Below are positions 22,941 through 50,079 of a stretch of 64,000 nucleotides of DNA, one piece after another (the first letter of the stretch is position 1; the number at the start of each line of letters is the position of its first letter). A program made the translations under genes and the position numbers. Below the pieces are notes generated by a model. It was not told the DNA's origin. It was given only the letters and a program-made list of their open reading frames with translations, and made no database searches. The stretch comes from Fluviicola sp. GTDB lineage: Bacteria > Bacteroidota > Bacteroidia > Flavobacteriales_D > Crocinitomicaceae. Where the stretch lies: the NCBI GenBank assembly GCA_043584915.1, contig CP121319.1, positions 2,863,228 through 2,927,227 on the forward strand, read 5' to 3'.

Positions 22941-22942
22941 AA

Positions 22943-23638: not shown

Positions 23639-23639
23639 A

Positions 23640-23792
23640 CTAACGTTCGTCTTTATCGTTCAATAATTTTGTCATTTGGTCCATACAATCTTGAACCATT
23701 GACCCTGCATTAGGAGTTGCTTCGCTGGAAGCTGCCTTGTCTCCTTCACTCACATTAATCTTAATGTGCATTTCTTTAATTTCTATAGGCAT
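23640..23792 (-). CDS. Small conserved-position eCIS ORF (50 aa), not in the supplied track
   Basis: ATG at 23792 and TAG at 23640-23642 (MPIEIKEMHIKINVSEGDKAASSEATPNAGSMVQDCMDQMTKLLNDKDER). It exactly fills the tube-LysM gap, ending 1 nt before the next ATG. Confidence 0.45.
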   Translation of the reverse strand: MPIEIKEMHIKINVSEGDKAASSEATPNAGSMVQDCMDQMTKLLNDKDER

Positions 23793-23805
23793 GGTCTAAG
23801 TCTTA

Positions 23806-24345: not shown

Positions 24346-24350
24346 ACTTT

Positions 24351-25937: not shown

Positions 25938-25962
25938 AATTGTGGTTATTGATTTTTATTTG

Positions 25963-26907
25963 TTAACTTTTTATATATACATCTGAGTAAAATTCTTCTT
26001 CAACGGAATCCCAAACCAAAAGCTTTGCATCGGGGTTTGGATATTTCACGGTTACAGTTGTAGTGCTGTTACCATTGCCCGTTGGTACTTCAATATCATT
26101 GGTGATTTTGATGTATCCGTTTTCTGTTAGTGGCTTTTTGTCGGATGTTTCATAAATAACTGAGCTATCACTTACATCTCGGAAACGCCAAATTGTCTTG
26201 CGGTTTTTTAGAAAGAGGTCCAACTCGGGCAAGGTCTCGTTGAACTTTGTGTTATCACCTGCATCAACCAATTGCATTTCTGTCGGTTCGCCTTCCAAAT
26301 AAATGCGAATCACGCCGAACTTATTGCGTAATTCTCTCGGTTGAATGTCTTTCAACAGGTTAATGTTGATGTCTGTTCCAGCAGTTTGCGTTTCATATTC
26401 CGAAAGCCGACTGTAATTTACCGTTACGGGTTCAGGTTCGCCTTCGCTGCTTGGGGTATATGCGGTTGGATCCAGATTGGACAAATAAATCAATCCATTT
26501 TTATCCCATTCGATGTGCGTATAATTTTCAAAGAATTGATCCGTAATTTCGATAGTGAAATCCAAATAAAAGTTCGCATCGAAAGCAAAGAAAGGTTTGT
26601 TCCAGGGAATTGGATCTGGCAGTGGGTCAGGCAAAGGATTCGGAATTGGAATTTGCTTCATTGCAACTTTGAATCCATCCTTATAGGGTTTAAAAATACC
26701 GCTGTAATCTTTTAGTATTTTCTCGGTTCTTTCGGTAGGCCGAATTGACATGAAGTTTTCAAGATTGTATTTCAATCGGTTATTGTCAAAACGCTTCTGA
26801 TGATCGCTCGTTCCATTTTCCTCATAAGCATTGTTATCCTCATTCAAAAAGTATCGATGTAAAATTCGTATATCGAAAAGAGTTCTATAGCTGTTCTGCA
26901 ATCCCAT
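25963..26907 (-). CDS. eCIS-associated hypothetical protein (314 aa)
   Basis: Intact ORF between the DUF4255 and sheath genes. Contains a Pro-rich segment (PIPNPLPDPLPDPIPW). No domain recognised. Confidence 0.5.
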   Translation of the reverse strand: MGLQNSYRTLFDIRILHRYFLNEDNNAYEENGTSDHQKRFDNNRLKYNLENFMSIRPTERTEKILKDYSGIFKPYKDGFKVAMKQIPIPNPLPDPLPDPIPWNKPFFAFDANFYLDFTIEITDQFFENYTHIEWDKNGLIYLSNLDPTAYTPSSEGEPEPVTVNYSRLSEYETQTAGTDININLLKDIQPRELRNKFGVIRIYLEGEPTEMQLVDAGDNTKFNETLPELDLFLKNRKTIWRFRDVSDSSVIYETSDKKPLTENGYIKITNDIEVPTGNGNSTTTVTVKYPNPDAKLLVWDSVEEEFYSDVYIKS

Positions 26908-26908
26908 T

Positions 26909-27493
26909 TTACAATTGATTTATTGTTTGATCTGTTTCTGTGATAATGCCTCCTTGTGATTGAACATCCTCGCTTTCAATTTGAATTACGCTTACTTTGT
27001 AAACTGCCGACGGTCGCTGTTTTCCACCCAAACTTCCCCAGATATAACTTTGTTCCTCAAAAGTTGGAGTGTACAATTCCACATGAAATTTGAAGTTGTC
27101 AAGCGAACTCAAGGGGTTCATTTCATTGGTGGAATGATTGTATATCGAATTCGATTGCGTGAATACCTTTTTCCCTTGAAAGAACTCTACTATTCCCGAT
27201 AGATCAGCAAGCTCCTCATCATAGGAACCAATTCCACGATTGACAGAGAACAGAATGTAGAGATTCAAGTTAATCACTGGCTGTTTTACTTGGGTGACAT
27301 TTCCGACATTGCGGATATTCTTGAAATTCTTCATGGTGTTTTCTTCACTCATGTTGATGAGTGTAAGAAGAATAGTGTCCTCAATTGCACCGTTGTTAGA
27401 TTCATCAAGTAGCGCAATATTCCCTAAAGTAACCTCCTTGTCGAGGTAGTCTTCTACTTGTAACGCGATTACTTGTAATACTTCAAATAGCAT
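26909..27493 (-). CDS. DUF4255 / Pvc16-Afp16-like tail terminator (cap) protein
   Basis: N-terminus MLFEVLQVIALQVEDYLDK and the ~190-aa size. It is the first gene of the operon, as is common in Bacteroidota eCIS loci. Confidence 0.65.
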   Translation of the reverse strand: MLFEVLQVIALQVEDYLDKEVTLGNIALLDESNNGAIEDTILLTLINMSEENTMKNFKNIRNVGNVTQVKQPVINLNLYILFSVNRGIGSYDEELADLSGIVEFFQGKKVFTQSNSIYNHSTNEMNPLSSLDNFKFHVELYTPTFEEQSYIWGSLGGKQRPSAVYKVSVIQIESEDVQSQGGIITETDQTINQL

Positions 27494-27689: not shown

Positions 27690-27706
27690 GATTGCGTATA
27701 TGTGCG
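27690..27706. promoter_or_regulatory. Upstream motif copy 2 (gattgcgtatatgtgcg)
   Basis: Perfect 17-mer repeated at 27741-27757 (51-bp spacing). Confidence 0.55.
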
Positions 27707-27740
27707 CATTTTTTCTAAAAAAAAATTAATTCCAAATTAT

Positions 27741-27757
27741 GATTGCGTATATGTGCG
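27741..27757. promoter_or_regulatory. Upstream motif copy 3 (gattgcgtatatgtgcg)
   Basis: Perfect direct repeat of 27690-27706, in the eCIS/comM divergent intergenic region. Confidence 0.55.
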
Positions 27758-27902
27758 TAATCTTTTTGTTAAAATTCACATCGAGTGATTTTCTAGAACA
27801 TCGATCTCAAGTAATATTTTTTTGTAACTTATTATAAGAGCTTGTGGTGAATCACATTTTTTCGATTCGAACAAGTAATTAAATAACCTAACCAATAATT
27901 AC

Positions 27903-29606: not shown

Positions 29607-30587
29607 TTATTCAATTTCGGTTGCTTGAGAAGATTCTTCTGATTCTATTTCTACACCGTCCTTTGCGATACTATCGTAATAAAGTTTTGTCAGTTCAGAA
29701 GTGAGTAAATCATCATTTAACATCTTTATGAGAAGGTCTTTTGAAACGCGAGTGTCAAGATTGAACTTTGTTTCATCCGCATTATATCTCATGCTTCGTT
29801 TGGTACTTGGATGATTTTTTGAAAACGCAATAATGCTTTCATTCGGAATACCGAGTCTCATAACAGGAGAGGAGCGCGCTACCTTTGTAAGTTTTCTTGC
29901 AAAACTAACGTCAGAAACAAGTTCTCGAAGCGCTTCAATATTGCTGACCAATTCTAAATCTCGTATGGCATTTAGACTAACGAGCGCTTCTCGTTCAATA
30001 ACATCATGGAATCCAAAACTACGCTCGATTGTACCTAAGTCCATAATGATGAGTTCGCCACCTACCCGTATGACTTGAAATTTTGGCGTGATACGTAAAA
30101 GTTGTTCTTCAAATCGTTCGAAACGTTCACTTGGCTTTCTAAATATATATCCACCGCGACCTATTATTTCTACAGGAGAAAGTTTTTTGTAGAGTGTTAA
30201 ATCATTCGTATTATCTGCTAAGACAACAATTAAGGATTCTATTTTTGCAAGTTCATCATTTCTGAAGTTAAAGTTTTCAATTTTGTCGTTTCCAACAACG
30301 TTTTCCAAGACTTCAAGTTCTTCGGGGATTTCCAAGTCATATTGATAGAAACATTTTCCTCGTTCATCTGCTGATGAAAGTTGGAGAACAACGTGTTCAG
30401 ATTCTTCGATTATTGACTTGGTTATCGAGTTAGTGAAAAGTTCTTTCATCGCCGGAAGGTCATCTTCATCAATATCAAGTTTCACAGGGTCAGTTTCATC
30501 TTTGATGACAGCGTAAATGATAATTTGTAATTCTCCTTCTGGATTTTGTAAAAAAGCGAGTGCATCGTCAAGTTCAGTCTTGTTCAT
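29607..30587 (-). CDS. KwaB-like (DUF4868-like) protein, candidate Kiwa defence component (326 aa)
   Basis: Soluble ~320-aa protein whose start overlaps the end of a ~200-aa multi-TM protein gene. Size and architecture match KwaA/KwaB; there is no motif-level proof. Confidence 0.45.
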   Translation of the reverse strand: MNKTELDDALAFLQNPEGELQIIIYAVIKDETDPVKLDIDEDDLPAMKELFTNSITKSIIEESEHVVLQLSSADERGKCFYQYDLEIPEELEVLENVVGNDKIENFNFRNDELAKIESLIVVLADNTNDLTLYKKLSPVEIIGRGGYIFRKPSERFERFEEQLLRITPKFQVIRVGGELIIMDLGTIERSFGFHDVIEREALVSLNAIRDLELVSNIEALRELVSDVSFARKLTKVARSSPVMRLGIPNESIIAFSKNHPSTKRSMRYNADETKFNLDTRVSKDLLIKMLNDDLLTSELTKLYYDSIAKDGVEIESEESSQATEIE

Positions 30588-31164
30588 TGGTTGAAGTTAG
30601 AGAGGCGTAGTAAATCCTTTCGTCAAGTTTAAAATACTTTACGCGGTCCTCTTGGTTTATAATGTCCTTGGTTATAATAATGCGTTCTTTTCTTGTTGTC
30701 CCATCGCGAAACTCTCCACTCACTTTATAGATTCGAAAATTAAGAATAGCGAGCGTAGGGTTTGCGTAGAATAAGTCTGTCCTGATGTAGATTTTACCTA
30801 TGACAACTAAGATTATAACAAACGCGACAATATATCGAGTGCTATCGAATTGAAAGCAAACGAGCGGTATGATATAGGTGGTTAAAAAGGTTAAGTGTTC
30901 ATACTCTATGCTCTCGACCTCAGTGATTTTAAAAGAAAGTTGGGCGGTTCCTCTTGTTTGGAATTTAAAGTCACGTAGTGAGATTACCCCAATAATAAGT
31001 GCGAACAGGCACACTAACGGGATTCGGTTTCTATAGAGTAGTTCTGAAAATCCGATGAATTTCCATTGACCTGAGAAGCACAGGGGTACATCAATCGTAA
31101 TAACGATAATGAGAATAAACAGAAGCCAAAGTGAAAGAAAAAAAAGTCCAACTTTCCGAATCAT
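30574..31164 (-). CDS. KwaA-like small multi-pass membrane protein (196 aa)
   Basis: About four hydrophobic helices. Overlaps the downstream gene by 14 nt. Confidence 0.45.
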   Translation of the reverse strand: MIRKVGLFFLSLWLLFILIIVITIDVPLCFSGQWKFIGFSELLYRNRIPLVCLFALIIGVISLRDFKFQTRGTAQLSFKITEVESIEYEHLTFLTTYIIPLVCFQFDSTRYIVAFVIILVVIGKIYIRTDLFYANPTLAILNFRIYKVSGEFRDGTTRKERIIITKDIINQEDRVKYFKLDERIYYASLTSTNEQD

Positions 31165-34711: not shown

Positions 34712-36040
34712 TTACTTTTTCTTAATGAGAGAATTTTCTTTCATCGGTTCAGCTATTTGATTGGTCGGCTTTACCGTATAAAAGCCACCGCCAGACGTCA
34801 ATGGGTCCATGCAAATAGTCGTAACTTCATTCGTCTCAATTGGGGCGTTTTCATCGAATACAATTGTCGAATGGCACACCACAGCCGGGCCGAAGCGGTA
34901 ATTGGGTAGCACCTTAACTGTAAATTCAACAGAGGAACGTGTAAGACTGAGGTCTTTACACATGCGGTCTTGAGTTGTTCGTAAAACTAGATCGTTGAAC
35001 TCAAAGGTAAGAATGCGTGTATCATAGTCAATGTCATAAATGGGGCCATTGCCGGGGTTATAGGCATTGTTGATTGGTTTCATTTGAATAGTTGTACCAC
35101 CGTATTCCTTTGGTAATACGATCTCTGAGATGGTCGATAAATTCAGTTTTGGATCCAAATGGCACTTTACCTGAACAAATCGGGTAGTGGTATCTCCCAC
35201 ATTTTGGAAATGCACCTTGTATGTGATCGGTTCCCCTCCAAAATCACATTCAGTTACAGCTTCTGAAGTCTCCTGCATAAAGTTAGGGTCATGCGATTCT
35301 GCCACTGGAATGCTTAATGCACAACGTGTAACGTTATTCATTGGTGGCAATTCATGTTTGTCGATATTCATGGATACGTTAAAAGTAACGACTTCTTGAG
35401 TAGGAGAAATAACGGCAACAGGAACTAGAATAGTACGTTCTTGTCCTGCTCTTAAACCGCTAAAACGCCACCTTTTCGCTTGATCAAATACTTCACCATT
35501 GGGATGAAACTCAGGGTGCAACCCGATATAGTTTGAGGCGAAGCGTGTAGCCGGGTCTGCGGTCAAATCCAAAGAGCCAGTGTAGGCTCCATTTCCGCCG
35601 ATTTGTGGAGGCAAAGCATACGTGATTAACAGAAAAAGGGTGTCATCAGGTACAGCGTTACGGTAATGTTGAATTTTTATGGAGGTTCCAGGATCGAGTA
35701 ATTGTCCGCTGATGGGCGCACCGCTATTTGGCGTAGAAGTAACCACTTTTGGCGGAGGTCCTCCGGTTCCATAATTTTCTGTTGGAGCAGCGAAAACTTC
35801 ATATGATCCCATTCTCGGGAATGTTGTTATCGGGTCTTCTACAAAACTGAATTGATTGTCACCAAACCACCAAAGGTGAGAATAAAACGCTCCTTGTTGA
35901 GAAATGGGCAAGCCTTGAAATTCGTATTTGAATTGTTCAGGATTTCCAACAACCGTTTGAACAATTTGTTGTGCTTGCACCTGAAATAAGCAAATACTAA
36001 AAAAGAGAAGTAGAGACAGGGTGTTTTTGTTTGTTTTCAT
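34712..36040 (-). CDS. Secreted hypothetical protein (442 aa)
   Basis: Signal peptide MKTNKNTLSLLLFFSICLFQVQAQQ. Beta-rich, with no assignable domain. Sits upstream of the CHAT gene in the same orientation. Confidence 0.6.
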   Translation of the reverse strand: MKTNKNTLSLLLFFSICLFQVQAQQIVQTVVGNPEQFKYEFQGLPISQQGAFYSHLWWFGDNQFSFVEDPITTFPRMGSYEVFAAPTENYGTGGPPPKVVTSTPNSGAPISGQLLDPGTSIKIQHYRNAVPDDTLFLLITYALPPQIGGNGAYTGSLDLTADPATRFASNYIGLHPEFHPNGEVFDQAKRWRFSGLRAGQERTILVPVAVISPTQEVVTFNVSMNIDKHELPPMNNVTRCALSIPVAESHDPNFMQETSEAVTECDFGGEPITYKVHFQNVGDTTTRFVQVKCHLDPKLNLSTISEIVLPKEYGGTTIQMKPINNAYNPGNGPIYDIDYDTRILTFEFNDLVLRTTQDRMCKDLSLTRSSVEFTVKVLPNYRFGPAVVCHSTIVFDENAPIETNEVTTICMDPLTSGGGFYTVKPTNQIAEPMKENSLIKKK

Positions 36041-36253
36041 CAGTGTACGTTTTTATGGTTGGTACCAGCTTCGAAAATAATCTAACCGGCAAAAGCGTAA
36101 AAAAACAAATTTCTTTCATCTAGATCCTTATTTAATGGAAGTTCTACTTTTGTACAAGACACATTCAAAATAAACCAACTGTTATTTACACGATCCTATA
36201 GCGATGAAGAAATTATTGCAACCCTCAATTCAGCAAGTAGGGGTGAGAATCAT

Positions 36254-36778
36254 GTGATTCAATTTTTACTCGATAAAAATCGGGGTAAAATTACTTCGTA
36301 TGTGCTAAAAAATAGCGGTGGGAAAGACGATGCCGAAGCAGTTTTGGTGGAAGGCGTAACCCATTTAATTTTGAATGTAAGGAAAGGTCAGTTCAAGGGG
36401 GGAAGTACGCTGGGAACCTATCTTTTTTCCATTTGTAGGGGCGTTTGGTTGAAAACTTTACGGAAGGAAAAACGCTACGCAGACCTTGAAGAAGATACAT
36501 CAACGGCGATGGATAATAACTCGCCGCTGCAACATTTCTCAGAATCGGAGTTGCAAAAGGAAGTTGGCTTTTTACTAGGGAAAATTGGAGCGGCGTGCCA
36601 GGAAGTTTTGAGATTATGGGCACAACATTATTCCATGTCGGAAATTGCCGCGCAAATGGAGTATAAGAATGCTCAGATTTCCATGAATAAGAAGAACAAA
36701 TGTTTGGGGAAATTGAAAGAAATCGTTCGAGAAAACCAAAAATATAGAGAGCAATTGCAAAGTTTTTTACTTAATTGA
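36254..36778 (+). CDS. ECF-type sigma-70 family sigma factor (start may lie upstream)
   Basis: Region 2-like segment (DAEAVLVEGVTHLILNV...TYLFSICRGVWLKTLRKE) and a region 4 HTH (MSEIAAQMEYKNAQISMNKKNKCLGKLKE). The frame stays open upstream of the GTG used in the track. Confidence 0.75.
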   Translation: MIQFLLDKNRGKITSYVLKNSGGKDDAEAVLVEGVTHLILNVRKGQFKGGSTLGTYLFSICRGVWLKTLRKEKRYADLEEDTSTAMDNNSPLQHFSESELQKEVGFLLGKIGAACQEVLRLWAQHYSMSEIAAQMEYKNAQISMNKKNKCLGKLKEIVRENQKYREQLQSFLLN

Positions 36779-36782
36779 AACA

Positions 36783-37499
36783 GTGGAAGATCGCACGCAA
36801 CATATCGATGATTATCTCAACAAGCGCTTATTGGAAGAAGATGCAGCGAAGTTTGAGCGGGATTTAGAAGCAGATCCAAATTTGCGCGATGAGCTAGCAT
36901 TGCAGCAAAAAGTTCAACTGTTATTAGAAGAAAACGAGCGGTTGGAATTAAAAAGTCAAGTAGCGAAGATCGCTCAAAATCAAATCAAATCTGGAGCGTC
37001 GAAGTCCATGATTCTGAAAATCGCGGCTGTCATCCTTTTGCTTTTAATTCCGACTTATTTCTATGTGTCCAATCAGTATTCGGATGCCAGTTTGTACGCT
37101 GCTTATGAAGAAACCTATGAAGATCGATTGACGACAATGAGTGCTTCCGATGACCTTCAAGAGGCCATGCACGCTTACAATACCGAGAAATACAAGAAAG
37201 CTGCCATCTTACTCCGTGAAATACGCATCGAAAATGCGGAAGAACGTGCGGTCATTTATGAGGCGGTCGCTTACCGCAAGTCGAATCAGTCGCAAAAATC
37301 GATTCAATTATTGAACAAATACATCCCTAAATCACAGTTCAAGGAAACTTTGCAATGGGAACTCATTCTAAATTATTTGGCGTTAGAACAGGGCGATGAA
37401 GCGCAGAAAACACTTCAAGAGTTCCTCAAGAACAATTCAGGTTACAAGCAGGAACAAGCAGAGGCACTGTTGCAAGATCTTCAGAGTTTTTGGAGGTGA
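36783..37499 (+). CDS. Putative anti-sigma factor (single TM, TPR-like C-terminal domain)
   Basis: Starts 4 nt after the sigma factor stop. Has a short cytoplasmic N-domain, a TM helix (MILKIAAVILLLLIPTYFYV) and a helical-repeat C-terminus. Confidence 0.6.
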   Translation: MEDRTQHIDDYLNKRLLEEDAAKFERDLEADPNLRDELALQQKVQLLLEENERLELKSQVAKIAQNQIKSGASKSMILKIAAVILLLLIPTYFYVSNQYSDASLYAAYEETYEDRLTTMSASDDLQEAMHAYNTEKYKKAAILLREIRIENAEERAVIYEAVAYRKSNQSQKSIQLLNKYIPKSQFKETLQWELILNYLALEQGDEAQKTLQEFLKNNSGYKQEQAEALLQDLQSFWR

Positions 37500-37536
37500 T
37501 CCATTAACCTTTTTAAGTATAAATACTTAGCGTCAT

Positions 37537-37549
37537 GCGCACATATGCG
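37537..37549. promoter_or_regulatory. Upstream motif (gcgcacatatgcg) shared with the eCIS upstream region
   Basis: Its reverse complement cgcatatgtgcgc matches cgtatatgtgcgc (27695-27707) at 12/13 positions. Relative to the direction of transcription it has the same orientation as the eCIS copies. Lies 71 nt before the ATG at 37620. Confidence 0.5.
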
Positions 37550-37619
37550 TGAATTGTTGATTTGGCTTTTTTTAACCGAATAAAGACGTATATTTAAGAC
37601 TCTAGTCACTAAAATTACA

Positions 37620-38912
37620 ATGGTACGTCAAATCATCACAGATTTAGAATGGTTGCGCATGACCTTAATCGAGGTTATGACGGCATACGTTGAGCAACAA
37701 GATCAATACCAGGGAATCACATTACAAGCTCCGAAATTAAGTTCCGATAAAAACGATGCCTATGCACTGTTTCTCAATGAAAATGACCTTACTGATCAAG
37801 ATCGCTTTTTATTATGTGTTTCTCTAAGTCGTTATTTGGGTGATTTCTGGAAAATGCTCTTTTTGGAGAAAAATCCCTTTGGAATTCATGTTGAGAACGA
37901 ATTCGCTTATCCGACATTTACAACGGTTGTAGCAATTCTGGCTGGAAATGATTTGGGAAAACGCTTAGAAGTACTGGAAGTATTAAAATCTGATGCCGTG
38001 CTTTTTAGCAAGCAAGTGGTTGACATTGATCAAAAGGAACCCGGACAAGATATGATGGCGTGCCGTTTGAAGGTACATGCCAATTGGCGAGAACTATTTC
38101 TTTGGAATCGACACGAGCTGCCACGATATAGCATGGAATTTCCAGCAGAGCAACTCACCACCGATTTGGACTGGGAAGAGTTAATCTTAGAGCCTTTTCC
38201 GATGTCAAAACTCGAAGAGATCAGTGATTGGATGGAGAATCGTGACGAATTGGCGAATGTTGTGAATGGTTCAGGGCACTTAAAACCAGGGTATCGCTGT
38301 TTGTTTTACGGACCATCTGGAACGGGGAAGTCACTTGCAGCGGCACTTTTAGGGAAACGATTTGGGATTCCAGTCTTTCGTATTGATCTCAGTAATTTGG
38401 TCAGTAAATACGTTGGGGAAACCTCTAAAAACCTAAAGCGAATTTTTGATTTAGCGGAAGATAAAAACTGGATTCTTTTCTTCGATGAGGGAGATGCCAT
38501 CTTTGGAAAACGTGTCGATACGAGTCAAACAGACAACAAAACAGCAAGTTATGCCAATCAGGATATTGCTTTCTTATTGCAGCGCATTGAACGTTTTAAT
38601 GGTTTGGTTCTTGTAGCCACCAACATGCGTAAGAACATGGATGCGGCATTTTCACGTCGATTTGAGAACATCATTCACTTCAACATTCCTACACCTGAAA
38701 AGGCCATGGAAATTTGGGGCGAGTATTTGCCGAAGCATATTCAAATTAACAACGAAGCACAGATACAACGATTAATTGCGGAGAATCGATTGTCGTTGGC
38801 TTCACTCTACAATGTCATGCACCGTTTGACATTGATGAGCATCTCCAAAAAACAAAACGAATTCAAACTGGCCGACATCACGAAATTGATGGGCGAAGAA
38901 AAAATGAAATGA
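37620..38912 (+). CDS. Intact AAA+ ATPase, paralog of the eCIS Afp15-like ATPase (430 aa)
   Basis: Walker A (FYGPSGTGKS), Walker B (ILFFDEGDAIFGKR), LVLVATN and SRRF. Its N-domain is collinear with that of the broken gene at 8174-9069. Confidence 0.85.
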   Translation: MVRQIITDLEWLRMTLIEVMTAYVEQQDQYQGITLQAPKLSSDKNDAYALFLNENDLTDQDRFLLCVSLSRYLGDFWKMLFLEKNPFGIHVENEFAYPTFTTVVAILAGNDLGKRLEVLEVLKSDAVLFSKQVVDIDQKEPGQDMMACRLKVHANWRELFLWNRHELPRYSMEFPAEQLTTDLDWEELILEPFPMSKLEEISDWMENRDELANVVNGSGHLKPGYRCLFYGPSGTGKSLAAALLGKRFGIPVFRIDLSNLVSKYVGETSKNLKRIFDLAEDKNWILFFDEGDAIFGKRVDTSQTDNKTASYANQDIAFLLQRIERFNGLVLVATNMRKNMDAAFSRRFENIIHFNIPTPEKAMEIWGEYLPKHIQINNEAQIQRLIAENRLSLASLYNVMHRLTLMSISKKQNEFKLADITKLMGEEKMK

Positions 38913-39892
38913 GAAACTGGTTTTTACATATTGTTTTTGGAGTGTTGGCATTGCAGTTGCAGGCACAATGCTCCTGCGATAGCTTGGTTGCTGCTATTAA
39001 AGCGGAAGATACCATTGCTGTGAAGGAGTGTTTGGAAAGTGGTACTAATCCCAATTGTTGGGTGCTTCGCTATGAAAATGAACATGAGGAATTTTTTGGT
39101 AAGGGAGAAGATTATGTTTGGGAATGGATGGATCGCCCCATGGCATTTGCAATTCGAAAAAATAACATTGCGCTTGTCAAGCAACTGCACAAAGAAGGAG
39201 CCTCAGTGAACACTGGAAGTGTCCGTTTGCTCGACACGCTTGGAACACCAAGGTTTATGCTATATCGGGTACCCTTAATGCTTGCTGATAGTATCATCAA
39301 ACTTGAGGAAGATAGTACAGTTTATAATTATCTGGTTGCGCACGGTGCTGTTTCGCACAGAACTCAGTTTAGGAGGGGGGAAATGATTGAAAAATTATTT
39401 TTCTCGGATGTAGTAAGCGAACCCTATTATATGAACTCATTGGATTCACTTAAAAGCTTCAATAAATTACTTCTGGAATACGGGGATGCCATTATTTTCC
39501 CTCAAGAACCAACAGTATTAGCAGCTGCATTTAGTAGCAATGTTCCATCCTTACAAAAATGGATTTTGGCAAATAGAGATTACCGATTATTGCAAGGTAA
39601 GTCCCTCTACCGATTGAATCAAACTTTCGATGTATGGAAACTTGCCTTATATGGAGAATATTTATCGGCGCGTTCTATTTCCTTTTATAAGTTGCATTTT
39701 GGTTTAACCGAGGAATCGATTGAAAGGGATATGTCAATAATTAAAAGCAGACACGAATATGTGTACGAGTACCTGCAATTGGAGAAGGAACTACAAGACC
39801 CCAATGTCCGAAAACGAGAAAAGAAGGAGAATAAGCTGTACCGAATTGGACTGGTAATAAGTATGGAAAATGATTTCCCCGATCGATTATAA
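38909..39892 (+). CDS. Ankyrin-repeat paralog 1 (327 aa), N-terminal leader
   Basis: ATGA overlap with the ATPase stop. Leader plus QCSCDSLVAAIKAEDTIAVKECLESGTNPNC (ANK-like), and a basic tail. Confidence 0.75.
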   Translation: MRNWFLHIVFGVLALQLQAQCSCDSLVAAIKAEDTIAVKECLESGTNPNCWVLRYENEHEEFFGKGEDYVWEWMDRPMAFAIRKNNIALVKQLHKEGASVNTGSVRLLDTLGTPRFMLYRVPLMLADSIIKLEEDSTVYNYLVAHGAVSHRTQFRRGEMIEKLFFSDVVSEPYYMNSLDSLKSFNKLLLEYGDAIIFPQEPTVLAAAFSSNVPSLQKWILANRDYRLLQGKSLYRLNQTFDVWKLALYGEYLSARSISFYKLHFGLTEESIERDMSIIKSRHEYVYEYLQLEKELQDPNVRKREKKENKLYRIGLVISMENDFPDRL

Positions 39893-39900
39893 TTGAAGAA

Positions 39901-40959
39901 ATGAATCATGTAGTTTTCAGTATAGCATTTTTAGTATTTACGTTTCAATTGAATGCGCAATGTTCGTGCGACAGCTTGGTAGCTGCCATTGAAGTGGGAG
40001 ATTCTGCTACTGTGCGCAATTGTTTGGATTCAGGAACAGATCCCAATTGTACGATGAGTGAATTTCGGGAAGACTCCACCAATACCTTCGACGAAAATCA
40101 AAATGTAATTACAGTTGCCGTAACCTATCATTGGCGCATAACACCTTTAACAACTGCTCTTCACGAAGATAATTTGGACATAGTGCAATTGCTTCTGGAT
40201 GCAGGAGCCTCACCCAATACACCCGAAGTTTGCCTGGAGGAAGTGAATTATGGCGAAACAATAAACCTTCGTCTTACTCCACTTAAGATAGCGAAGAACA
40301 TGACCCAAGCGGATGAAGTCACAGCTCTCTTACTTGCCAATGGCGCTCTTACGGAAGAGGAATTAGAGGCAAGAGGGTTTCGTATTCAACTTTTGTCTAG
40401 TTATTACGATGATGACTATTTCCCTTGTAAAGATTCTATAACGAAATTACATGAATTGATTGAAACCTGGAGTCTTGAAATGATTATAGAAGATGAAATT
40501 CTTACGGAAAGAGCATTGGCAAATAACGATATGATTTTATTCGATTTTTTAGTTAATCAATATTCTGTTTCCTTGGACCGAAGGGCAAGCGGATATGTAA
40601 CCGTCGGAATGGGTATGTTCAAGCGAACAATATACAAAGAAGGCTACTCTCCCATCGGTTCGGTCTATTTCGGAGATAAAATGACTATTGAGATGATTGA
40701 TCTCCTTAAAAGTAACGGTGGTTTCGCAAAAGGAGAATTTGAAAAATATATTCTTAGAAAATCTGGTAATGACAATTGGGATGATAAAAAAGTACGCAAA
40801 TATTATCTTCTTGAACAAAAGCTAGAAGCTGATAAAGAGTTGAGCGAAAAAAAGAAACTGAAATACGAAAAAAAAATGCAAAAACTTTATGATCAGTTAG
40901 AAGCAAAGAATGGAATTAAAGCACGATTAGAAAATGATTTTAGCGAGGGGTGTCGCTAG
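39901..40959 (+). CDS. Ankyrin-repeat paralog 2 (352 aa)
   Basis: CSCDSLVAAIEVGDSATVRNCLDSGTDPNC and TPLTTALHEDNLDIVQLLLDAGASPNT (ANK consensus). The N-terminal half is nearly identical to paralog 3. Confidence 0.8.
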   Translation: MNHVVFSIAFLVFTFQLNAQCSCDSLVAAIEVGDSATVRNCLDSGTDPNCTMSEFREDSTNTFDENQNVITVAVTYHWRITPLTTALHEDNLDIVQLLLDAGASPNTPEVCLEEVNYGETINLRLTPLKIAKNMTQADEVTALLLANGALTEEELEARGFRIQLLSSYYDDDYFPCKDSITKLHELIETWSLEMIIEDEILTERALANNDMILFDFLVNQYSVSLDRRASGYVTVGMGMFKRTIYKEGYSPIGSVYFGDKMTIEMIDLLKSNGGFAKGEFEKYILRKSGNDNWDDKKVRKYYLLEQKLEADKELSEKKKLKYEKKMQKLYDQLEAKNGIKARLENDFSEGCR

Positions 40960-40972
40960 ATAAATTCATATT

Positions 40973-42025
40973 ATGAAATACAGCATCATCATATTTTTTG
41001 TCGGATTCTGCGCTTTTTGGGGAGTCTCTCAATGTTCGTGCGATAGCTTGGTGGCTGCCATTGAAGTGGGAGATTCTGCTACTGTGCGCAGTTGTTTGGA
41101 TTCAGGTACAGATCCCAATTGTAAGACGAGTGAATTTCGGGAAGACTCCACCAATACCTTCGACGAAAATCAAAATGTAATTACAGTTGCCGTAACCTAT
41201 CATTGGCGCATAACACCTTTAACAACTGCTCTTCACGAAGATAATTTTGGCATAGTGCAATTGCTTCTGGATGCAGGAGCCTCAACCAATACGCCCGAAG
41301 TTTGCTTGGAGGAAGTGAATTATGGCGAAACAATTAACCTTCGTCTTACTCCACTTAAGATAGCGAAGAACATGGCCCAAGCAGATGAAGTCACAGCTCT
41401 CTTACTTGCCAATGGCGCTCTTACGGAGAGAGAGTTAGAGAGAAGGGGAGATAGGATGGCAAAATTATCCATGTGCTATGATAATGGATCATTTCCTTGC
41501 AGAGATTCTATATTGAAATTGCACGAACTAATAGACTTATGGCAAGGTATGGTCTATTTGGATGAAGAATTTATGATTAGTCATGCGCTTAGAAGTAATG
41601 ATATTCTCCTTTTGAGGTACTTAGTTGATGTTCATCATGTTTCTTTAAAAGAGCGTCCAGAGAGATACGTGACTGTTGGGATGGGAATGTTCCGACGGAC
41701 GTTAAAAGAAGAAAGGTTTGCTCCGTTTGGGTCGTTGGTCGCCGGTAATAAATTAACAGTCTCATCAATACTCTATTTAGAAACTCAAAGGAGCATTACT
41801 GATGAACAGATTTACAATACTTTCCTTCAATACAGAAGCAAATATAAAGACAGGCGTAAAGTTGCCAAATACTTTAAGATGGAGAGAAAATACAAGGATG
41901 TTGATATGAAGTCTTCCAAGAAGGAAAGAGTAAAGAAAAAAATGCAAAAACTTTATCATCAGTTAGAAGCAAAGAATGGAATTAAAGCACGATTAGAAAA
42001 TGATTTTAGCGAGGGATGTCGCTAG
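40973..42025 (+). CDS. Ankyrin-repeat paralog 3 (350 aa)
   Basis: Same ANK module as paralog 2, the same leader as paralog 4, and the same tail as paralog 2 (KMQKLY.QLEAKNGIKARLENDFSEGCR). Confidence 0.8.
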   Translation: MKYSIIIFFVGFCAFWGVSQCSCDSLVAAIEVGDSATVRSCLDSGTDPNCKTSEFREDSTNTFDENQNVITVAVTYHWRITPLTTALHEDNFGIVQLLLDAGASTNTPEVCLEEVNYGETINLRLTPLKIAKNMAQADEVTALLLANGALTERELERRGDRMAKLSMCYDNGSFPCRDSILKLHELIDLWQGMVYLDEEFMISHALRSNDILLLRYLVDVHHVSLKERPERYVTVGMGMFRRTLKEERFAPFGSLVAGNKLTVSSILYLETQRSITDEQIYNTFLQYRSKYKDRRKVAKYFKMERKYKDVDMKSSKKERVKKKMQKLYHQLEAKNGIKARLENDFSEGCR

Positions 42026-42038
42026 ATAAATTCACATT

Positions 42039-43100
42039 ATGAAATACAGCATCATCATATTTTTTGTCGGATTCTGCGCTTTTTGGGGAGTCTCTCAATG
42101 CTCCTGCGATAGCTTGGTGGCTGCTATTAAAGCAGAAGACTCTGCTACTGTGCGCAGTTGTTTGGAGAGTGGTACTGATCCCAATTGTGAGGTCATTGAT
42201 TTGGCTTATCAAGACCAAAAAATTATGCGCGATGATACTTCGATGGATACCATTCAACTCATTCTGAAATGGCAAAAGCGCCCCATTGTATTCGCTTTAA
42301 CAAAGGATCCAAACCTGTTGCGTATACTATTGGATGCAGGTGCTTCTCCCAATACGGGATCTTATTGCTACCGAGAATTGCACTTTGACGAGTACCGACA
42401 ATATGAACTTCCACCAATGGAATTGATCGATTCTGCATCCCACCCAAATGCATTTAGAATGTTGATAAAGTATGGCGGTTTGACAGAAAAGCAATTGAAA
42501 GCCAGAGGAAGACGTATCGTAAAGTTGAGTACGTATTACAAGGGGTGGGGCGCTTGCTCTGATTCCATTCAGTTAATGCATAGACTTTTAGAAGTCTATG
42601 GAGAGTCTGTTCTTTTCAAGTCCAATAGAAATTTTCTTGATAGAATGATCTACAATAATGATATTGTGACGACAAATTATCTTCTGACTGTAAAGGAGGT
42701 AACTTTGAAAGAAGATAATGGAGATTACTTCTCGAGCGGAGCTATTTTACCAAGAGGAGTCGAAATCCCCGACTTTTCTCCTGTAGGTGCGATCATATCG
42801 AGTGATTATTTGACAATCTCTACCTTACTCTTGCTTTTAAAGCATAGCCCTGAACATTTTGAACAGCCACTAAAAGATAATATTGCTTATCGAGAGTTTA
42901 CGCGAAGAAAGGCAACAAAGCAAGCGCAAAAATATTTCACCATGTTTTTCGAAATCGAGGAGAACAAATCACTTTCAAAAAAGGAAATACAACGCATGGA
43001 AAAACGCATGCAACGCATTTACAACAAATTAGAAAAGAAAAATAGCATAGAAGCGCGCCTACAAAGCAAAGCAATGGATTGCGAACGAAGCAGGCGCTAA
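42039..43100 (+). CDS. Ankyrin-repeat paralog 4 (353 aa)
   Basis: Leader identical to paralog 3. Residues ~24-170 and the tail (FTMFFEIEENKSLSKKEIQRMEKRMQRIYNKLEKKNSIEAR) are nearly identical to paralog 5. Confidence 0.8.
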   Translation: MKYSIIIFFVGFCAFWGVSQCSCDSLVAAIKAEDSATVRSCLESGTDPNCEVIDLAYQDQKIMRDDTSMDTIQLILKWQKRPIVFALTKDPNLLRILLDAGASPNTGSYCYRELHFDEYRQYELPPMELIDSASHPNAFRMLIKYGGLTEKQLKARGRRIVKLSTYYKGWGACSDSIQLMHRLLEVYGESVLFKSNRNFLDRMIYNNDIVTTNYLLTVKEVTLKEDNGDYFSSGAILPRGVEIPDFSPVGAIISSDYLTISTLLLLLKHSPEHFEQPLKDNIAYREFTRRKATKQAQKYFTMFFEIEENKSLSKKEIQRMEKRMQRIYNKLEKKNSIEARLQSKAMDCERSRR

Positions 43101-43110
43101 CAGAAAAACA

Positions 43111-44178
43111 ATGAACAGTTTAAAACAGATTTATTTAGTGGCTCTTTTTATGGGAGTATTCACGCAAGTGCAAGCAAAATGCTCCTGCGATAGCTTGGTT
43201 GCTGCTATTAAAGCAGAAGACTCTGCTACTGTGCGCAATTGTTTGGATTCAGGAACAGATCCCAATTGTGAGGTCATTGAATTGGCTTATCAAGACCAAA
43301 AAATTATGCGCGATGATACTTCGATGGATACCATTCAACTCATTCTGAAATGGCAAAAGCGCCCCATTGTATTCGCTTTAACAAAGGATCCAAACCTGTT
43401 GCGTATACTATTGGATGCAGGTGCTTCTCCCAATACGGGATCTTATTGCTACCGAGAATTGCACTTTGACGAGTACCGACAATATGAACTTCCACCAATG
43501 GAATTGATCGATTCTGCATCCCACCCAAATGCATATAGAATGTTGATAAAGTATGGCGGTTTGACAGAAAAGCAATTGAAAGCTAGGGGAAGACGAATAG
43601 GGAAATTAAGCACCTATTATACAGGGTATGGAGCATGTGCAGATTCGATTCTCTTGTTGCATGCATTTTTGGATAAATATCAAGGAGAATTTATTCATAG
43701 ATCGAATAGGGTTTTAATCAAAAGAGCTTTGTTTCGAAACGATATTGTTTTTATTGAACAATTACTAAAGGTTAAAAATATCAGTCTCAAAGAAGAAGAA
43801 GGTAAGTACTTCTCCAGTGGAGCTATTCTACCGAGAGGGTATCAGGAGTTGGATTATTCTCCAATAAGCTCAATTACGGCAAGCGATTTTGTTACAATTT
43901 CTACGATTCTTTTAATGTTAGAATATCAGCCGGAAGTTATGGTTGATGCGATTAAAGAAGAAATTGTGGACGATCCTTATGGTAAGGGAAACTTCAAAAA
44001 AGTTAAAAAGTATTTCACCATGTTTTTCGAAATCGAGGAGAACAAATCACTTTCAAAAAAGGAAATACAACGCATGGAAAAACGCATGCAACGCATTTAC
44101 AACAAATTAGAAAAGAAAAATAGCATTGAAGCCCGAATGAATAGCAAAGCAATGGATTGCGAACGGAGTAGGCGCTAA
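43111..44178 (+). CDS. Ankyrin-repeat paralog 5 (355 aa)
   Basis: As for paralog 4. The central ~130 aa diverge. Confidence 0.8.
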   Translation: MNSLKQIYLVALFMGVFTQVQAKCSCDSLVAAIKAEDSATVRNCLDSGTDPNCEVIELAYQDQKIMRDDTSMDTIQLILKWQKRPIVFALTKDPNLLRILLDAGASPNTGSYCYRELHFDEYRQYELPPMELIDSASHPNAYRMLIKYGGLTEKQLKARGRRIGKLSTYYTGYGACADSILLLHAFLDKYQGEFIHRSNRVLIKRALFRNDIVFIEQLLKVKNISLKEEEGKYFSSGAILPRGYQELDYSPISSITASDFVTISTILLMLEYQPEVMVDAIKEEIVDDPYGKGNFKKVKKYFTMFFEIEENKSLSKKEIQRMEKRMQRIYNKLEKKNSIEARMNSKAMDCERSRR

Positions 44179-44196
44179 CGTACTAAAAACAATATT

Positions 44197-47100
44197 ATGA
44201 CCACTTTTCAAAAACTGCAATTGCGGACAGTTAGTGCTGCCAATGCCTCAACATCTATCAAACCTCTTTCTTTGAACGAATTGGTAAATTCACTGAGGTC
44301 AATGGCGCCGGGCGTTATGGAGAATTCTTTTGATACAGACCCAAGGGAGTTAACTGCGGATGAATTTGCAAGCTATGAGCAAAAGGTTGCTCACGTTCTT
44401 GAGTTAATGAATGGAATAAAGCCAAAAAACAAATATAAGTTTACTCAGGATAAAAAACGGTTTCAAAAACAAAGGAAGCGAGTTCTTGCTGCATTTGAGG
44501 TGCTCCAGAATATGAGCTTTAAAGAGCAAGACCATTTTGCTTCACATTACACAGAAGTTTTTGACGATGTCATTGGCAGTTTAGTATTAGAGGATTATCA
44601 AAAGTTCGATGCGGGCTTAATCCCAGGGGTTACTTATGAATTACTGGTCAATGGAGAAAGAAACCCATTATTGGTAATTCTGGATACGCCAAAATATTAC
44701 GCGGAGGATGTGGAAGTCATTGAAATGGCTTTATTGCTTTGTTCTCTCGTACAAGTCGAGGAGTCTGATACTACAACAGAAGGAACTAAGAAGAAAGCGT
44801 TCCAAGAAGCCGTTAAGGGAATTTTAAACAATCATAATCGTACTGAAGGACTAACGAAAGTAATCGAAGAGGAGGTGCCTGAAACAGATTACAAACTGTT
44901 TATCTGGCAAATGTTAAAACTGTTAAAGAATGCACGAGATTCAGGAGGCAATGTAAATACCAGAGCAATAACGGCGGGAATGAAATTTATTGGAAGAGGA
45001 GGTTTTTCCAAAGAATTGATTCTAGAACATATATCACTTGCCGATTTTCAAAGAAATAAAAGTGATGGTGGGCATGTATACGGGCTTCAGTTTGATGATA
45101 GTGATGTGAGCATCTATGCCGATTTAAAGGACGGGTATAAGGACCATGCGAAAGAGAATGGTTTAGAGAATGAAAGTGGAATAGATGGGGCATTCATTCG
45201 TGTAAAGGGTGAAAGTATTCCCATCTTAGGCATGGATTATATAACAAGTAATATGAGTGCCCATTTTGATGCTGGAGCATTCACGAAGGTCGAATTAGTG
45301 ATGACCTGGGATACCAAAAAAACCAGTGATGATGTGGGGGGGCGGAAGGAGCCTATTCAAGCCAATATTGATTTGAACAATGCAAATTTAACCTTAGATA
45401 ATGTTCTGTATCGTTCCCGATTTTTATCTAAAAAGCGCAAGGAAGATGGAACGTTAATAGAAAATGAGATGACCGAAGAACAGTATTCTGTTCTTATGGG
45501 AAACATTACTATTGAGAACCTCTCGATGAAAAACCTAACCATAACGGATGAATTAAGAAAATTTAAAAACAACTCAGAAGTTATTTATCGGTTAACAGAA
45601 GGAATTCAAGACCAACTGTACTTGTTAATCGATGTTATTTTGTCCATGGTTTCCCAAACCTCCCTTACACCAATGGACATCAAAGATTTTGAAAGTTTCA
45701 ATAACTCTGCCAAACGAACCATTCTTGGAGCAGATGGAGTAGAGTTGAAAATAGGGAAAGGAATGATCCGCAATTTTGTCGACTCTGAAGGAAAGGTTTT
45801 GGGCAATGTCCCATTGGATGGATTGACCATAAAACTGAACAGCCAGAAAGCCGAAGCGGAAGATTTCGATGTTGAACTTTGGAAGCAACAACAAGAACTC
45901 AAAGCACTCGAAGAAGATTTGGCGGAATTGTATAAAAAGAAAGCACGCTTTATTAAGAACCATGAAGGCGATTTTATCAGTAAATCAAAATATATAAACG
46001 AGTTTGATGAAACGAGAAAAAAGAGTACAATTGGAAAGTTGATAGGTGAAATTGACTCCTTGAATAATGAAATTTCGGAAAAAATCAACTCTCCAATTAC
46101 CTACACACTTTCCAGTAATGATCCCCTTGGTTTTTCTCGCGCATTTTACATCGATGAAATGCTTCGCAAAACCTTTCAGGAAAAATTAGGTCTATTTGGT
46201 TTGTACGACATTCAGGGGCTCAATGAATTTACTCTAACGCAAGGCATCGAAATGAATGGTTCTATTGGGTTGGATCGAATTTCTGATACAGTTCTTAAAA
46301 TCGATGAAATTGCCGTTCCTAAATTGTTTGATAGTGCCGTACACATGGATTTAGGCGCTTTACGAATTAATGGTAACGATGTTAATCTGTCTAATTTAAA
46401 AGGAGCGATTAGTCTAAAATGGTCGGAAGTTGCTCCCACAGGTAGAGGTGAGGTGAAATCTGAACTCCGTCCAATAAAAATCGCTTTAACGGGTGGGGAT
46501 ATGACGGTAAAAGACCTTGAATTGGTAGATACCACCAATAAAAAACCATCCTTTAAAATAGGAGGAATGGTCACCTTGGAGAATACACAAATGATCTTTC
46601 ACAGTGTGGGCGATTTTGAAGGTGAAAACAATTACAAAGACATTGAATTTAGCTGTACATCTATTGTTCTCGACAATGTTGCTCAATATCAACATGCCTT
46701 AAAGGATAATCCTGAAATAGAGAATTGGTTTGTTGCCCAAGATGGAGGTACGATCAGACTGTCAGGAATCAATGTCCGCAATAAAAAATCCAACGCTTTA
46801 GGTATTAATGCTGCAGGAAATAGTGTGACTTCGCAGGAGCTTGAAGTAAAAGCAACTTCTGGGGCCTTCGATAATTTATTAGTTGATGGGTTTTCCATTA
46901 ATTCGAACATCACAAAATTAAGAGCTGTAATTACAAATGAAACGGAAACGACTCCAGATAATCAGGTGATTCGATCAACAATGAAAACAGAACTGTATTT
47001 TGGTTTAAGTGAATTGTTTGTGCCAGACTTAACACGCGAAATGGAAGGAATTAGTCTTTCACATATACCATATGATTCCGACGATATTAAGAAAAAAATC

Positions 47101-50079: not shown

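Follow-up and report, generated by a model that had tools for sequence, protein, structure and literature searches.

Is a giant protein that is encoded near an eCIS part of that machine, and if so, in what capacity? The question is raised by an open reading frame (P0001; 44197–50079, plus strand) in the window – the whole 64,000-nucleotide stretch of Fluviicola sp. DNA analyzed here – that runs from an ATG at 44197 to a stop codon ending at 50079 and encodes 1,960 amino acids. A reading made from the sequence alone had described this as an uninterrupted 5.9-kb frame without a signal peptide, transmembrane segment, or recognizable catalytic motif and had proposed it as a candidate eCIS payload or structural accessory. 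We found that the frame is real and that its start codon matches the N-termini of two full-length homologs. The absence of export signals was likewise borne out: the maximum Kyte-Doolittle mean over a 19-residue window is only 1.38, and we therefore assign the protein neither a transmembrane segment nor a signal peptide. Its N-terminus is polar, cysteine accounts for 0.1% of its residues, searches against Pfam, NCBIfam, PHROGs, PADLOC, and PDB sequences returned zero matches, and no toxin or enzyme motif was recognized within it.

An exhaustive HMMER search of 1.84 billion representative proteins identified three full-length, colinear homologs of P0001 at ~30% identity. A profile search added four remote relatives (1,948–2,191 amino acids) from three Cytophagales genomes – G433, G545, and G569, the last of which carries two giant genes, at loci G569:C28 and G569:C16. 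The remote relatives score 38.6–79.9 bits against the profile of alignment A1 with colinear domains, and BLASTP aligns P0001 with the G433 protein at 24.5% identity over 498 amino acids (E 3e-16). The homologs include GAB5419054.1, GAB5419959.1, and GAB5423415.1, from a Crocinitomicaceae MAG, as well as P0003 and P0005, which are encoded on Logan contigs of up to 49 kb. On this sequence evidence, P0001 is a member of a rare Bacteroidota superfamily of giant (1,800–2,200 amino acid) cytoplasmic proteins that spans two orders, Cytophagales and Flavobacteriales. Members are present in 3 of 401 sampled Cytophagales genomes and in none of 400 other sampled genomes of the host’s own family, and motif scans found none among GTDB species representatives. 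No paralog was found in the P0001 genome or at the eCIS-adjacent loci of relatives. Word-index protein searches, queried with the whole of P0001, residues 1500–1960, or the A1 profile, yielded nothing beyond the self-match, probably because a candidate cap hid the homologs that the exhaustive search recovered, and locus scans with P0001 or A1 across genome, metagenome, and viral contigs found no relative. The two-motif DNA pattern GGHVYG ... MTWP gave zero matches in genome contigs and one chance match, in a high-GC contig.

These homologs bear on the simplest alternative, that P0001 is a chance or decaying frame without function. The many gene lesions of this genome would fit such a reading, but a 5.9-kb frame stays open in a genome of 42% GC and eight colinear family members share conserved motif blocks. 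We put the probability of a chance or decaying frame at practically nil, and the existence of the homologs refutes a non-functional open reading frame.

Conservation is even along the whole alignment, and the C-terminus, residues 1600–1840 included, is among the best-kept parts. The best-conserved N-proximal block is KSDGGHVYG (residues 288–296; 45058–45084, plus strand), in which GGHVYG is invariant in A1 and G292 and G296 remain invariant in A2, the eight-sequence alignment of P0001, the three homologs, and the four remote Cytophagales relatives. An MTW block (residues 369–371; 45301–45309, plus strand), followed by a TS motif, is invariant in A1, with W371 invariant in A2. A helical C-terminal region contains the block SDDFNFLDH (residues 1614–1622; 49036–49062, plus strand), where S1614, D1616, F1619, L1620, and D1621 are invariant in A1 and F1619 is invariant in A2. 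Low conservation and indels mark a variable linker of K/E-rich composition (residues 1495–1560; 48679–48876, plus strand). Two candidate assignments were rejected from these alignments. A papain-like or NlpC/P60 peptidase had been suggested by the apparent invariance of C182, H293, and D309; these residues are not invariant in A2, and hhalign of residues 150–400 against a 30-sequence NlpC/P60 alignment gave a probability of 0.1%. A polymorphic toxin build was also discarded, given the even conservation, which leaves no conserved trunk with a variable C-terminal domain.

The sequence-only reading had further described two K/E-rich coiled-coil-like stretches and many short beta-like motifs faintly reminiscent of AsmA/TamB proteins. 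The coiled-coil-like stretches are present, at residues 556–590 (45862–45966, plus strand) and at residues 962–995 plus 1003–1024 (962–1024 overall; 47080–47268, plus strand). In the best heptad register, a and d positions are 70% hydrophobic versus 24% elsewhere in the first stretch and 78–83% versus 16–19% in the second (70–83% versus 16–24% across both); the first has weak PDB matches, to coiled coils only, and the second shows the lowest conservation in the alignment. The beta-like motifs held up in part. The pattern h-x-[LIV]-x-[ND]-[LIV]-x-[LIV] occurs six times against 1.7 expected, a mild excess (a count attained in 15 of 2,000 shuffles), but ‘many’ overstates it: strictly alternating hydrophobic residues are no more frequent than expected (3 versus 7.2), and profile-profile self-comparison found no internal repeats (every probability <5%).

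Were the AsmA/TamB resemblance genuine, P0001 could be a housekeeping envelope-biogenesis protein of the producer itself, a lipid transporter with a repeating beta-groove. Apart from the motif excess, the features that lean this way are the long beta hairpins of low-confidence AlphaFold2 models (pLDDT ~33; run without an alignment, the mean was 32.9 for residues 1–1000 and 32.7 for residues 1001–1960). The resemblance found no support at the sequence level: the Pfam families AsmA, AsmA_2, TamB (DUF490), and DUF3971 match none of the eight members (at E up to 1 for four of them and 0.1 for the remaining four), and comparison of A1 and A2 by hhalign with a TamB alignment of 10 sequences gave a probability of 0.2%. 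P0001 also has no signal peptide or N-terminal membrane anchor, and the genome encodes its own TamB elsewhere, as do 10 of 12 relatives. That the family is missing from all 400 other sampled genomes of the host’s family further argues that it is not housekeeping. P0001 resembles the bridge-like lipid transport proteins AsmA, TamB, and YhdP in being large, beta-rich, and cysteine-poor – a likeness of composition and motifs – but shares no similarity with them in sequence or profile, lacks an anchor, and is not housekeeping, and we judge such a housekeeping role highly improbable.

The genomic context is more informative. P0001 is the last gene of an operon that begins with an Alg15/Afp15-type AAA+ ATPase (430 amino acids; 37620–38912, plus strand; Pfam AAA, 1e-24) with intact Walker A and B motifs, followed by five tandem paralogs of 327–355 amino acids (38909–44178, plus strand) that have signal peptides and weak ankyrin-repeat matches. 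From the ATPase through the paralogs to P0001, consecutive genes overlap by at most 4 nt or lie at most 18 nt apart. The ATPase shares 33–44% identity with the ATPases of relatives, TMP-adjacent ones included, over its full length and including the N-domain; in the relatives, its homologs sit directly after the tape-measure gene and are followed by DUF4157 cargo genes. With these tight gaps and this full-length homology to eCIS-cluster ATPases, the earlier description of an operon that starts with an eCIS-type ATPase and ends with the giant gene was correct. Nothing closely related to this ATPase turned up among GTDB representatives. No immunity gene was found directly downstream of P0001, where a convergent, conserved 257-amino acid gene abuts its stop codon; the candidate partners lie upstream.

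A 13-nt motif, [CT]GCACATAT[AG]CG (37538–37550, plus strand), is located 82 nt before the ATPase start. Four copies exist in the 4.17-Mb genome versus ~0.5 expected, three of which precede either the eCIS structural operon (two copies; 27695–27758, minus strand) or the island operon (one copy), and the orthologous eCIS operon of the same-genus genome G010 is also preceded by two. The upstream motif or operator, the ATPase, the five ankyrin-like genes, and the giant gene together constitute a 12.5-kb island. This island is missing from the syntenic slots of G010, which has 3 kb of unrelated genes instead, and of G028, with the eCIS cluster conserved; on these comparative grounds, the block is accessory rather than core. 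In base composition, GC falls at the 5th percentile and GC3 at the 8th, both only mildly low, and GC3 is near that of the eCIS sheath and PKD genes, so that there is no clear sign of recent transfer.

The eCIS structural operon itself (9099–27493, minus strand) encodes, by Pfam annotation, a Pvc16_N cap, sheath, tube, VgrG-like spike, gp25, baseplate J, a PKD fibre-like protein, and a tape measure, and is 47–91% identical to the G010 cluster (G010:C8). A canonical cargo of 1,412 amino acids (3905–8143, minus strand) has an N-terminal region that is acidic and rich in repeats, an eCIS_core (DUF4157) domain (Pfam, 4.6e-28), TM-rich segments, and a C-terminal cassette; a paralog and orphan cassettes lie to the left of its gene. 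The in-cluster loader ATPase is a remnant (8174–9069, minus strand) in which codons 147–292, Walker A included, are deleted and a frameshift occurs at ~8632. By tblastn, its matches to the intact G010 ortholog cover residues 1–146 at 72% and residues 293–443 at 81%, abutting but in different frames. The genome as a whole holds two eCIS clusters plus a large array of DUF4157 toxin/cargo genes. Because both in-cluster copies carry internal deletions, the second of them at genome position 3.8535 Mb, the island ATPase – the only intact copy found by tblastn across the genome – is the sole intact loader, though the assembly is rich in gene lesions (81% completeness on one contig) and the ‘deleted’ in-cluster ATPases could therefore in principle be assembly faults.

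We observed the same association in distant genomes. The search for orthologs and their neighborhoods suggested by the earlier reading yielded an Alg15-type ATPase beside or near the giant gene at four of the five loci with readable context (this window, G433, G545, and G569:C28); at G569:C16, no ATPase lies within about 6–8 kb. Tandem exported, weakly ankyrin-like genes are directly upstream of the giant gene at three of the five (here, G433, and G545). CIS_TMP and Pvc16_N are present in all four host genomes that carry a giant gene, compared to a CIS_TMP base rate of 103/401 sampled Cytophagales genomes (26%) – a co-occurrence that rests on 3 + 1 genomes, possibly related. Recurrence of the pairing across two orders, eCIS markers in every host, the shared upstream motif, and the status of the ATPase as the only intact loader support the proposed link between the giant protein and an eCIS loader.

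Such a link might nevertheless reflect a self-standing system of ATPase, ankyrin-like proteins, and giant protein that works without eCIS particles – an AAA+-driven envelope/lipid machine or a defence module whose only ties to eCIS are common descent and, here, a regulator. The eCIS structural genes of the three Cytophagales genomes are on other contigs than the giant/ATPase pair, which is detached from them; the giant protein has neither DUF4157 nor a disordered leader; IetA defence models hit the AAA core as well (E 1e-36); Kiwa is 7 kb distant; and the giant-linked ATPases all sit on very long branches (1.5–3.4 versus a median of 0.48) of an ATPase tree that is compatible with one origin or several. 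We nonetheless consider a self-standing system unlikely, since the ATPase matches eCIS loaders over its full length, N-domain included, an IetS-like protease is absent, the island operon bears the near-unique motif of the eCIS operon, eCIS occurs in 4/4 host genomes against the 26% base rate, and this is the sole intact loader in a genome full of DUF4157 cargo genes. IetAS-type defence was rejected as a specific candidate: the PADLOC IetA models cover the AAA core alone (residues 182–427), a protease partner is lacking, and the giant protein has no PADLOC match.

The reading that we favor, at a probability of roughly one half, is that P0001 is a giant non-DUF4157 payload of the neighboring eCIS, brought in a 12.5-kb accessory island with its own loader; its loading and injection, and hence the term ‘cargo’, are what we infer from this context. 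One regulator would turn on the eCIS structural operon and the island jointly. The island ATPase would then recognize the giant protein, perhaps via a short conserved N-terminus, unfold it, and thread it into the tube lumen, as Alg15 does for Cgo1/Cgo2 in AlgoCIS, and the particle would deliver it into a target cell. The exported ankyrin-like proteins may be periplasmic partners, most simply immunity proteins, and a periplasmic immunity role would point to a bacterial envelope target.

Published work on AlgoCIS provides a precedent for such a payload. Particles assemble in the absence of Alg15, but cargo loading requires it (bioRxiv 10.64898/2026.05.27.728243), which makes a detached module of loader and payload workable. 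Loading can also proceed without DUF4157, a domain that some eCIS cargos lack (bioRxiv 10.64898/2026.05.27.728243); within the giant family, Pfam found no DUF4157/eCIS_core match in any of the eight members, and the domain is optional in known cargos. P0001 also lacks a long disorder-prone N-terminal leader of the AlgoCIS-cargo kind: its first ~150–200 residues have a TOP-IDP index – a crude measure, which leaves room for a short N-terminal signal – of 0.04–0.13, and the first 170, which look ordered, one of 0.09–0.13, like the rest of the protein, versus 0.20–0.39 for the N-terminal region of the DUF4157 cargo in the window. The missing domain and leader count against the payload reading, as do the even conservation, which is unlike that of a polymorphic toxin, the loose linkage of the giant/ATPase pair to eCIS structural genes in Cytophagales, the small number of genomes behind the co-occurrence, and the lack of a recognizable activity.

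Alternatively, the giant protein could be linked to the eCIS yet not injected, serving as a scaffold, assisting the loader ATPase as an adaptor or specificity factor, or anchoring, arraying, or releasing particles. Its uniformly conserved, non-modular architecture and coiled-coil segments would suit such a part, no toxin domain was found, and the giant gene has been counted as always close to the ATPase (though the ATPase is seen at 4/5 loci). But G010 runs a highly similar eCIS cluster with an intact loader and without the giant protein, which is therefore not needed for that machine – the ‘structural accessory’ option of the earlier reading is likewise disfavored, since this same-genus genome lacks the block despite its 47–91% identical cluster. 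The family is also very rare (0/400 genomes of its own family and 3/401 Cytophagales) while eCIS is common, and exported ankyrin-like partners are more in keeping with a product that acts on the envelope than with a scaffold in the cytoplasm. A non-injected role thus appears unlikely.

Characterized systems provide partial parallels to the payload reading. AlgoCIS of Algoriphagus machipongonensis, with its cargos Cgo1/Cgo2 and its ATPase Alg15, is likewise a Bacteroidota eCIS in which an Alg15-type ATPase is encoded with a candidate payload that is cytoplasmic and has no Sec signal (PMC8894135; bioRxiv 10.64898/2026.05.27.728243). Cgo1/2 differ from P0001 in having a long disordered N-terminal loading sequence and DUF4157; P0001 is 1.6 times the length of Cgo2, is accompanied by exported ankyrin-like genes, and has its gene in an operon apart from the structural genes, at a distance of 10 kb. 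Another parallel is the 2,014-amino acid giant protein of G433:C20, a remote Cytophagales homolog that scores 79.9 bits with the A1 profile and has shared motif blocks, similar size, no export signal, an adjoining Alg15-type ATPase, and exported ankyrin-like tandem genes upstream. Its overall identity to P0001 is only 15–17%, it belongs to another order, and its ATPase gene is convergent and directly adjacent, whereas that of P0001 heads the operon.

With regard to size, Afp18 is well over 200 kDa, indicating that a protein as large as P0001 can serve as an eCIS cargo. Afp18, from the Serratia entomophila antifeeding prophage, is a non-DUF4157 payload encoded after the ATPase, to which we liken P0001 without claiming a sequence relationship, and what directs its loading is a short N-terminal signal, not an extended disordered stretch (bioRxiv 10.1101/2023.11.13.566157). 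Unlike P0001, it has recognizable toxin domains, and Afp is directed at insects and lacks genes for exported partners. For the exported partners, an analogy is provided by Tle effectors, which are accompanied by tandem arrays of Tli immunity genes. These phospholipases, including the one with an ankyrin-repeat Tli in Enterobacter cloacae (bioRxiv 10.1101/2023.03.28.534661), represent injected effectors beside exported ankyrin-type partner genes. They use another delivery machine, though, the invariant residues of P0001 (read by eye) include no GxSxG or HxKxxxxD motif, and the immunity role of its neighboring paralogs is putative.

A bolder possibility, which we offer tentatively, is that ankyrin-like partner(s), giant protein, and loader ATPase make up a portable, previously undescribed armament cassette of Bacteroidota eCIS, able to retrofit a resident machine and here replacing both deleted native loaders. 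The giant protein might then be a new payload class, a long beta-rich body acting on the target envelope – for example as a rogue lipid-transfer bridge or membrane-perturbing groove – and neutralized in the producer by the periplasmic ankyrin-like proteins.

Most of the eCIS payloads known to date are of small to medium size, and those of Bacteroidota are recognized by DUF4157. If P0001 is a payload, a conserved ~220 kDa family with its own loader and exported partners but no known domain would broaden the range of eCIS cargos and would offer a handle on how loader ATPases recognize them. The genome represents a natural experiment, in which two eCIS clusters and an array of DUF4157 toxins apparently depend on one foreign loader. 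For the engineering of programmable injection systems, a cassette of loader and cargo that is compatible with a resident particle would also be of use.

The uninterrupted open reading frame at 44197-50079 (+) was confirmed, with 1,960 open codons between an ATG at 44197 and a stop at 50079. Its product, P0001, had been described from sequence as lacking a signal peptide and membrane segments, and this description holds: the highest 19-residue hydropathy value is 1.38. Cysteine is nearly missing from the protein, and we found no match in Pfam, NCBIfam, PHROGs, PADLOC or PDB sequences. The two K/E-rich coiled-coil-like stretches noted previously were recovered and have a good heptad pattern. The claim of many repeating short beta-like motifs was too strong, and what stands is a mild excess (6 versus 1.7 expected; equalled in 15 of 2,000 shuffles). 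There was no enrichment of strict hydrophobic alternation, and profile-profile self-comparison of P0001 revealed no internal repeats.

Word-index searches with P0001 returned nothing but P0001. An exhaustive HMMER search of 1.84 billion representative proteins, using residues 1-1200 as the query, identified three homologs: P0002 (1,923 aa) from a Crocinitomicaceae MAG in NCBI, P0003 (1,938 aa) from a Logan assembly, with a near-copy (P0005) likewise from Logan, and P0004 (1,810 aa), which ends at the edge of a 6.5-kb JGI contig. All three align end to end with P0001 at ~30% identity, so P0001 is not an orphan. Conservation is evenly distributed along the family, with peaks at KSDGGHVYG (residues 288-296), MTW (369-371), SDDFNFLDH (1614-1622) and several blocks within 1720-1840; it falls to its lowest in the coiled-coil stretches and within a K/E-rich linker at 1495-1560. 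The family is absent from 60 relatives examined and from all 400 other genomes sampled in the same taxonomic family, and no P0001 paralog was found in its own genome, G000.

A profile of P0001 and its colinear homologs (A1) was searched against 401 genomes from the order of an Algoriphagus genome. It matched giant frames in the Cytophagales genomes G545 (E 1.1e-9) and G569 (E 2.9e-5), and the G569 giant used as query also retrieved a giant in G433 and a second G569 paralog. These four Cytophagales giants score 79.9, 53.4, 44.5 and 38.6 bits against the profile with colinear domain matches, and BLASTP joins P0001 to the G433 giant (E 3e-16, 24.5% identity over 498 residues). The motif blocks are kept in the consensus of an eight-sequence alignment, within which G292, G296, W371 and F1619 are invariant in 8/8 sequences; none of the eight has a Pfam or PDB match. 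Judged by these similarities, the giant family appears to span Flavobacteriales, represented by the window, and Cytophagales.

A faint likeness to AsmA/TamB proteins, raised in the sequence-only reading, was not borne out by sequence tests (no Pfam match; 0.2% hhalign probability against TamB). No membrane anchor was found in P0001, and G000 encodes a separate housekeeping TamB. A housekeeping role for P0001 is excluded by the distribution of the giant family. A groove-like fold in this candidate injected protein is a possibility; both AlphaFold2 models of P0001, made without an alignment, have a pLDDT of ~33.

We read the genomic context of giant genes at five loci. In the window, an Alg15-type ATPase (the AAA+ loader ATPase type of AlgoCIS) heads the operon, and five paralogous exported ankyrin-like genes lie upstream of the giant gene. 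The G433 ATPase is convergent and 64 nt past the giant gene (42% identity), with ankyrin-like genes of 791 and 480 aa upstream. In G545 a 761-aa AAA protein is encoded directly downstream (27% identity), and upstream lie two ankyrin-like genes, one of 439 aa and the other of at least 291 aa. On G569 contig C28 the ATPase is directly upstream on the same strand (34% identity), while the C16 locus has no ATPase nearby; no ankyrin-like genes were seen upstream at either. The G433 and G545 partners are mutually homologous and carry signal peptides and weak ankyrin-repeat matches, like the five window paralogs. Because hhalign joins the two sets (54% probability) only through the ankyrin-like repeat, we consider them analogous, with orthology not proven.

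All three giant-bearing Cytophagales genomes encode CIS_TMP and Pvc16_N, on contigs other than the giant's. CIS_TMP occurs in 103 of the 401 sampled Cytophagales genomes, so that chance co-occurrence in 3/3 has p ~0.02 assuming independent genomes, which may be related. Evolution is markedly faster in the four giant-linked ATPases than in tape-measure-adjacent loaders: their terminal branches in the ATPase tree measure 1.5-3.4 substitutions per site, against a median of 0.48. With all of them on long branches, a common origin is neither supported nor refuted. Next to each of the two G569 giant genes lies a convergent gene for a family-5 solute-binding protein (SBP_bac_5), which suggests that the locus was duplicated as a segment long ago; the two SBP_bac_5 proteins are 21% identical. 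Immediately past the giant-linked ATPase of G433, a 602-aa gene (15423-17228 of locus L191) has weak metallopeptidase-type matches (ATLF, 7e-4; DUF4344, 1e-3; both below curated cut-offs) and may encode another payload candidate.

The surroundings of the window operon are shared with G010, a genome of the same genus, at 33-91% identity: the eCIS operon, ComM, a CHAT protein, a DUF7619 protein, a sigma/anti-sigma pair and the genes right of 50080. Between the anti-sigma gene and a 257-aa gene, however, the slot measures 12.5 kb here (37,500-50,079) versus 3 kb in G010, where it holds an oxidoreductase-like gene and a lipoprotein gene. The same slot has one 374-aa gene in G028 and a convergent gene of ~1,300 aa in other species. 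The block at 37,500-50,079 is thus an island. Seven or more genomes of the genus keep the secreted DUF7619 protein together with the divergent ECF sigma/anti-sigma pair (34712-37499) as a unit, regardless of downstream content. The pair is therefore part of the conserved backbone and no specific feature of the ATPase/giant operon. The 13-nt motif [CT]GCACATAT[AG]CG has four copies in 4.17 Mb versus ~0.5 expected: two precede the eCIS operon, a third lies 82 nt upstream of the ATPase start and the fourth is within an unrelated gene. In G010, two copies precede the eCIS operon and the slot has none. Elsewhere in the window, a Kiwa pair (KwaB and an upstream membrane protein; 29607-31164, -) lacks a counterpart in the otherwise syntenic G010 region and is probably another insertion.

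A complete eCIS structural operon, annotated with Pfam, occupies 9099-27493 (-). After it comes a gene whose 1,412-aa product combines a disorder-prone acidic N-terminal region and an eCIS_core (DUF4157) domain, the canonical AlgoCIS cargo type. The region left of the window holds another DUF4157 cargo-type gene, along with immunity-like genes and several orphan C-terminal cassettes. Together, window positions 742-8143 (-) and genome positions 2843514-2863109 form a polymorphic-toxin array. Its two complete DUF4157 cargo genes encode 1,412 and 1,378 aa (69% identity), and its orphan C-terminal cassettes, at least five in number, share a start junction (KAARKLFRKK) and have small immunity-like genes between them.

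Relatives carry the loader ATPase gene after the tape-measure gene. Here that position (8174-9069, -) holds a remnant in which residues 1-146 (72% identity) and 293-443 (81%) of the intact 443-aa G010 ortholog abut in different frames; codons 147-292 are deleted, and Walker A with them, with a frame shift at ~8632. A second eCIS cluster outside the window (3834391-3853800, Pvc16_N through tape-measure gene) has an ATPase (3852898-3853635) with a stop just past Walker A and its C-terminal lid in another frame, and thus likewise has an internal deletion. With both in-cluster ATPases internally deleted, the ATPase at 37620-38912, only ~35% identical to the G010 in-cluster ATPase, appears to be the sole intact Alg15-type copy in G000. 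Each of the two deletions is a clean loss of hundreds of bases, unlike a homopolymer error. The assembly is a single 4.17-Mb contig with only 81% of marker genes found; this figure and the large, clean deletions seen in several genes indicate either a decaying genome or an assembly that needs polishing.

In combination, several findings tie the giant gene to eCIS: the family of the ATPase in its operon, the recurrence of that pairing at other giant loci, the motif shared with the eCIS operon, its place on an island and the loss of native loaders. A structural accessory, the other role first suggested, is unlikely because the nearly identical G010 machine dispenses with the giant. In AlgoCIS, the loader is required only for cargo loading, which relies on N-terminal sequence and for which DUF4157 is dispensable (bioRxiv 10.64898/2026.05.27.728243). 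Combined with the eCIS ties, these findings lead us to propose, at a probability of about one half, that P0001 is a giant eCIS payload with its own loader. Weighing against this proposal, P0001 has neither a disordered leader nor a DUF4157 domain, its architecture is non-modular with uniform conservation, the Cytophagales giant/ATPase pairs are separated from structural genes, and the C16 paralog lacks a nearby ATPase. If P0001 is such a payload, the exported ankyrin-like proteins would most simply be periplasmic partners or immunity proteins, from which we infer that its target would lie in a bacterial envelope.
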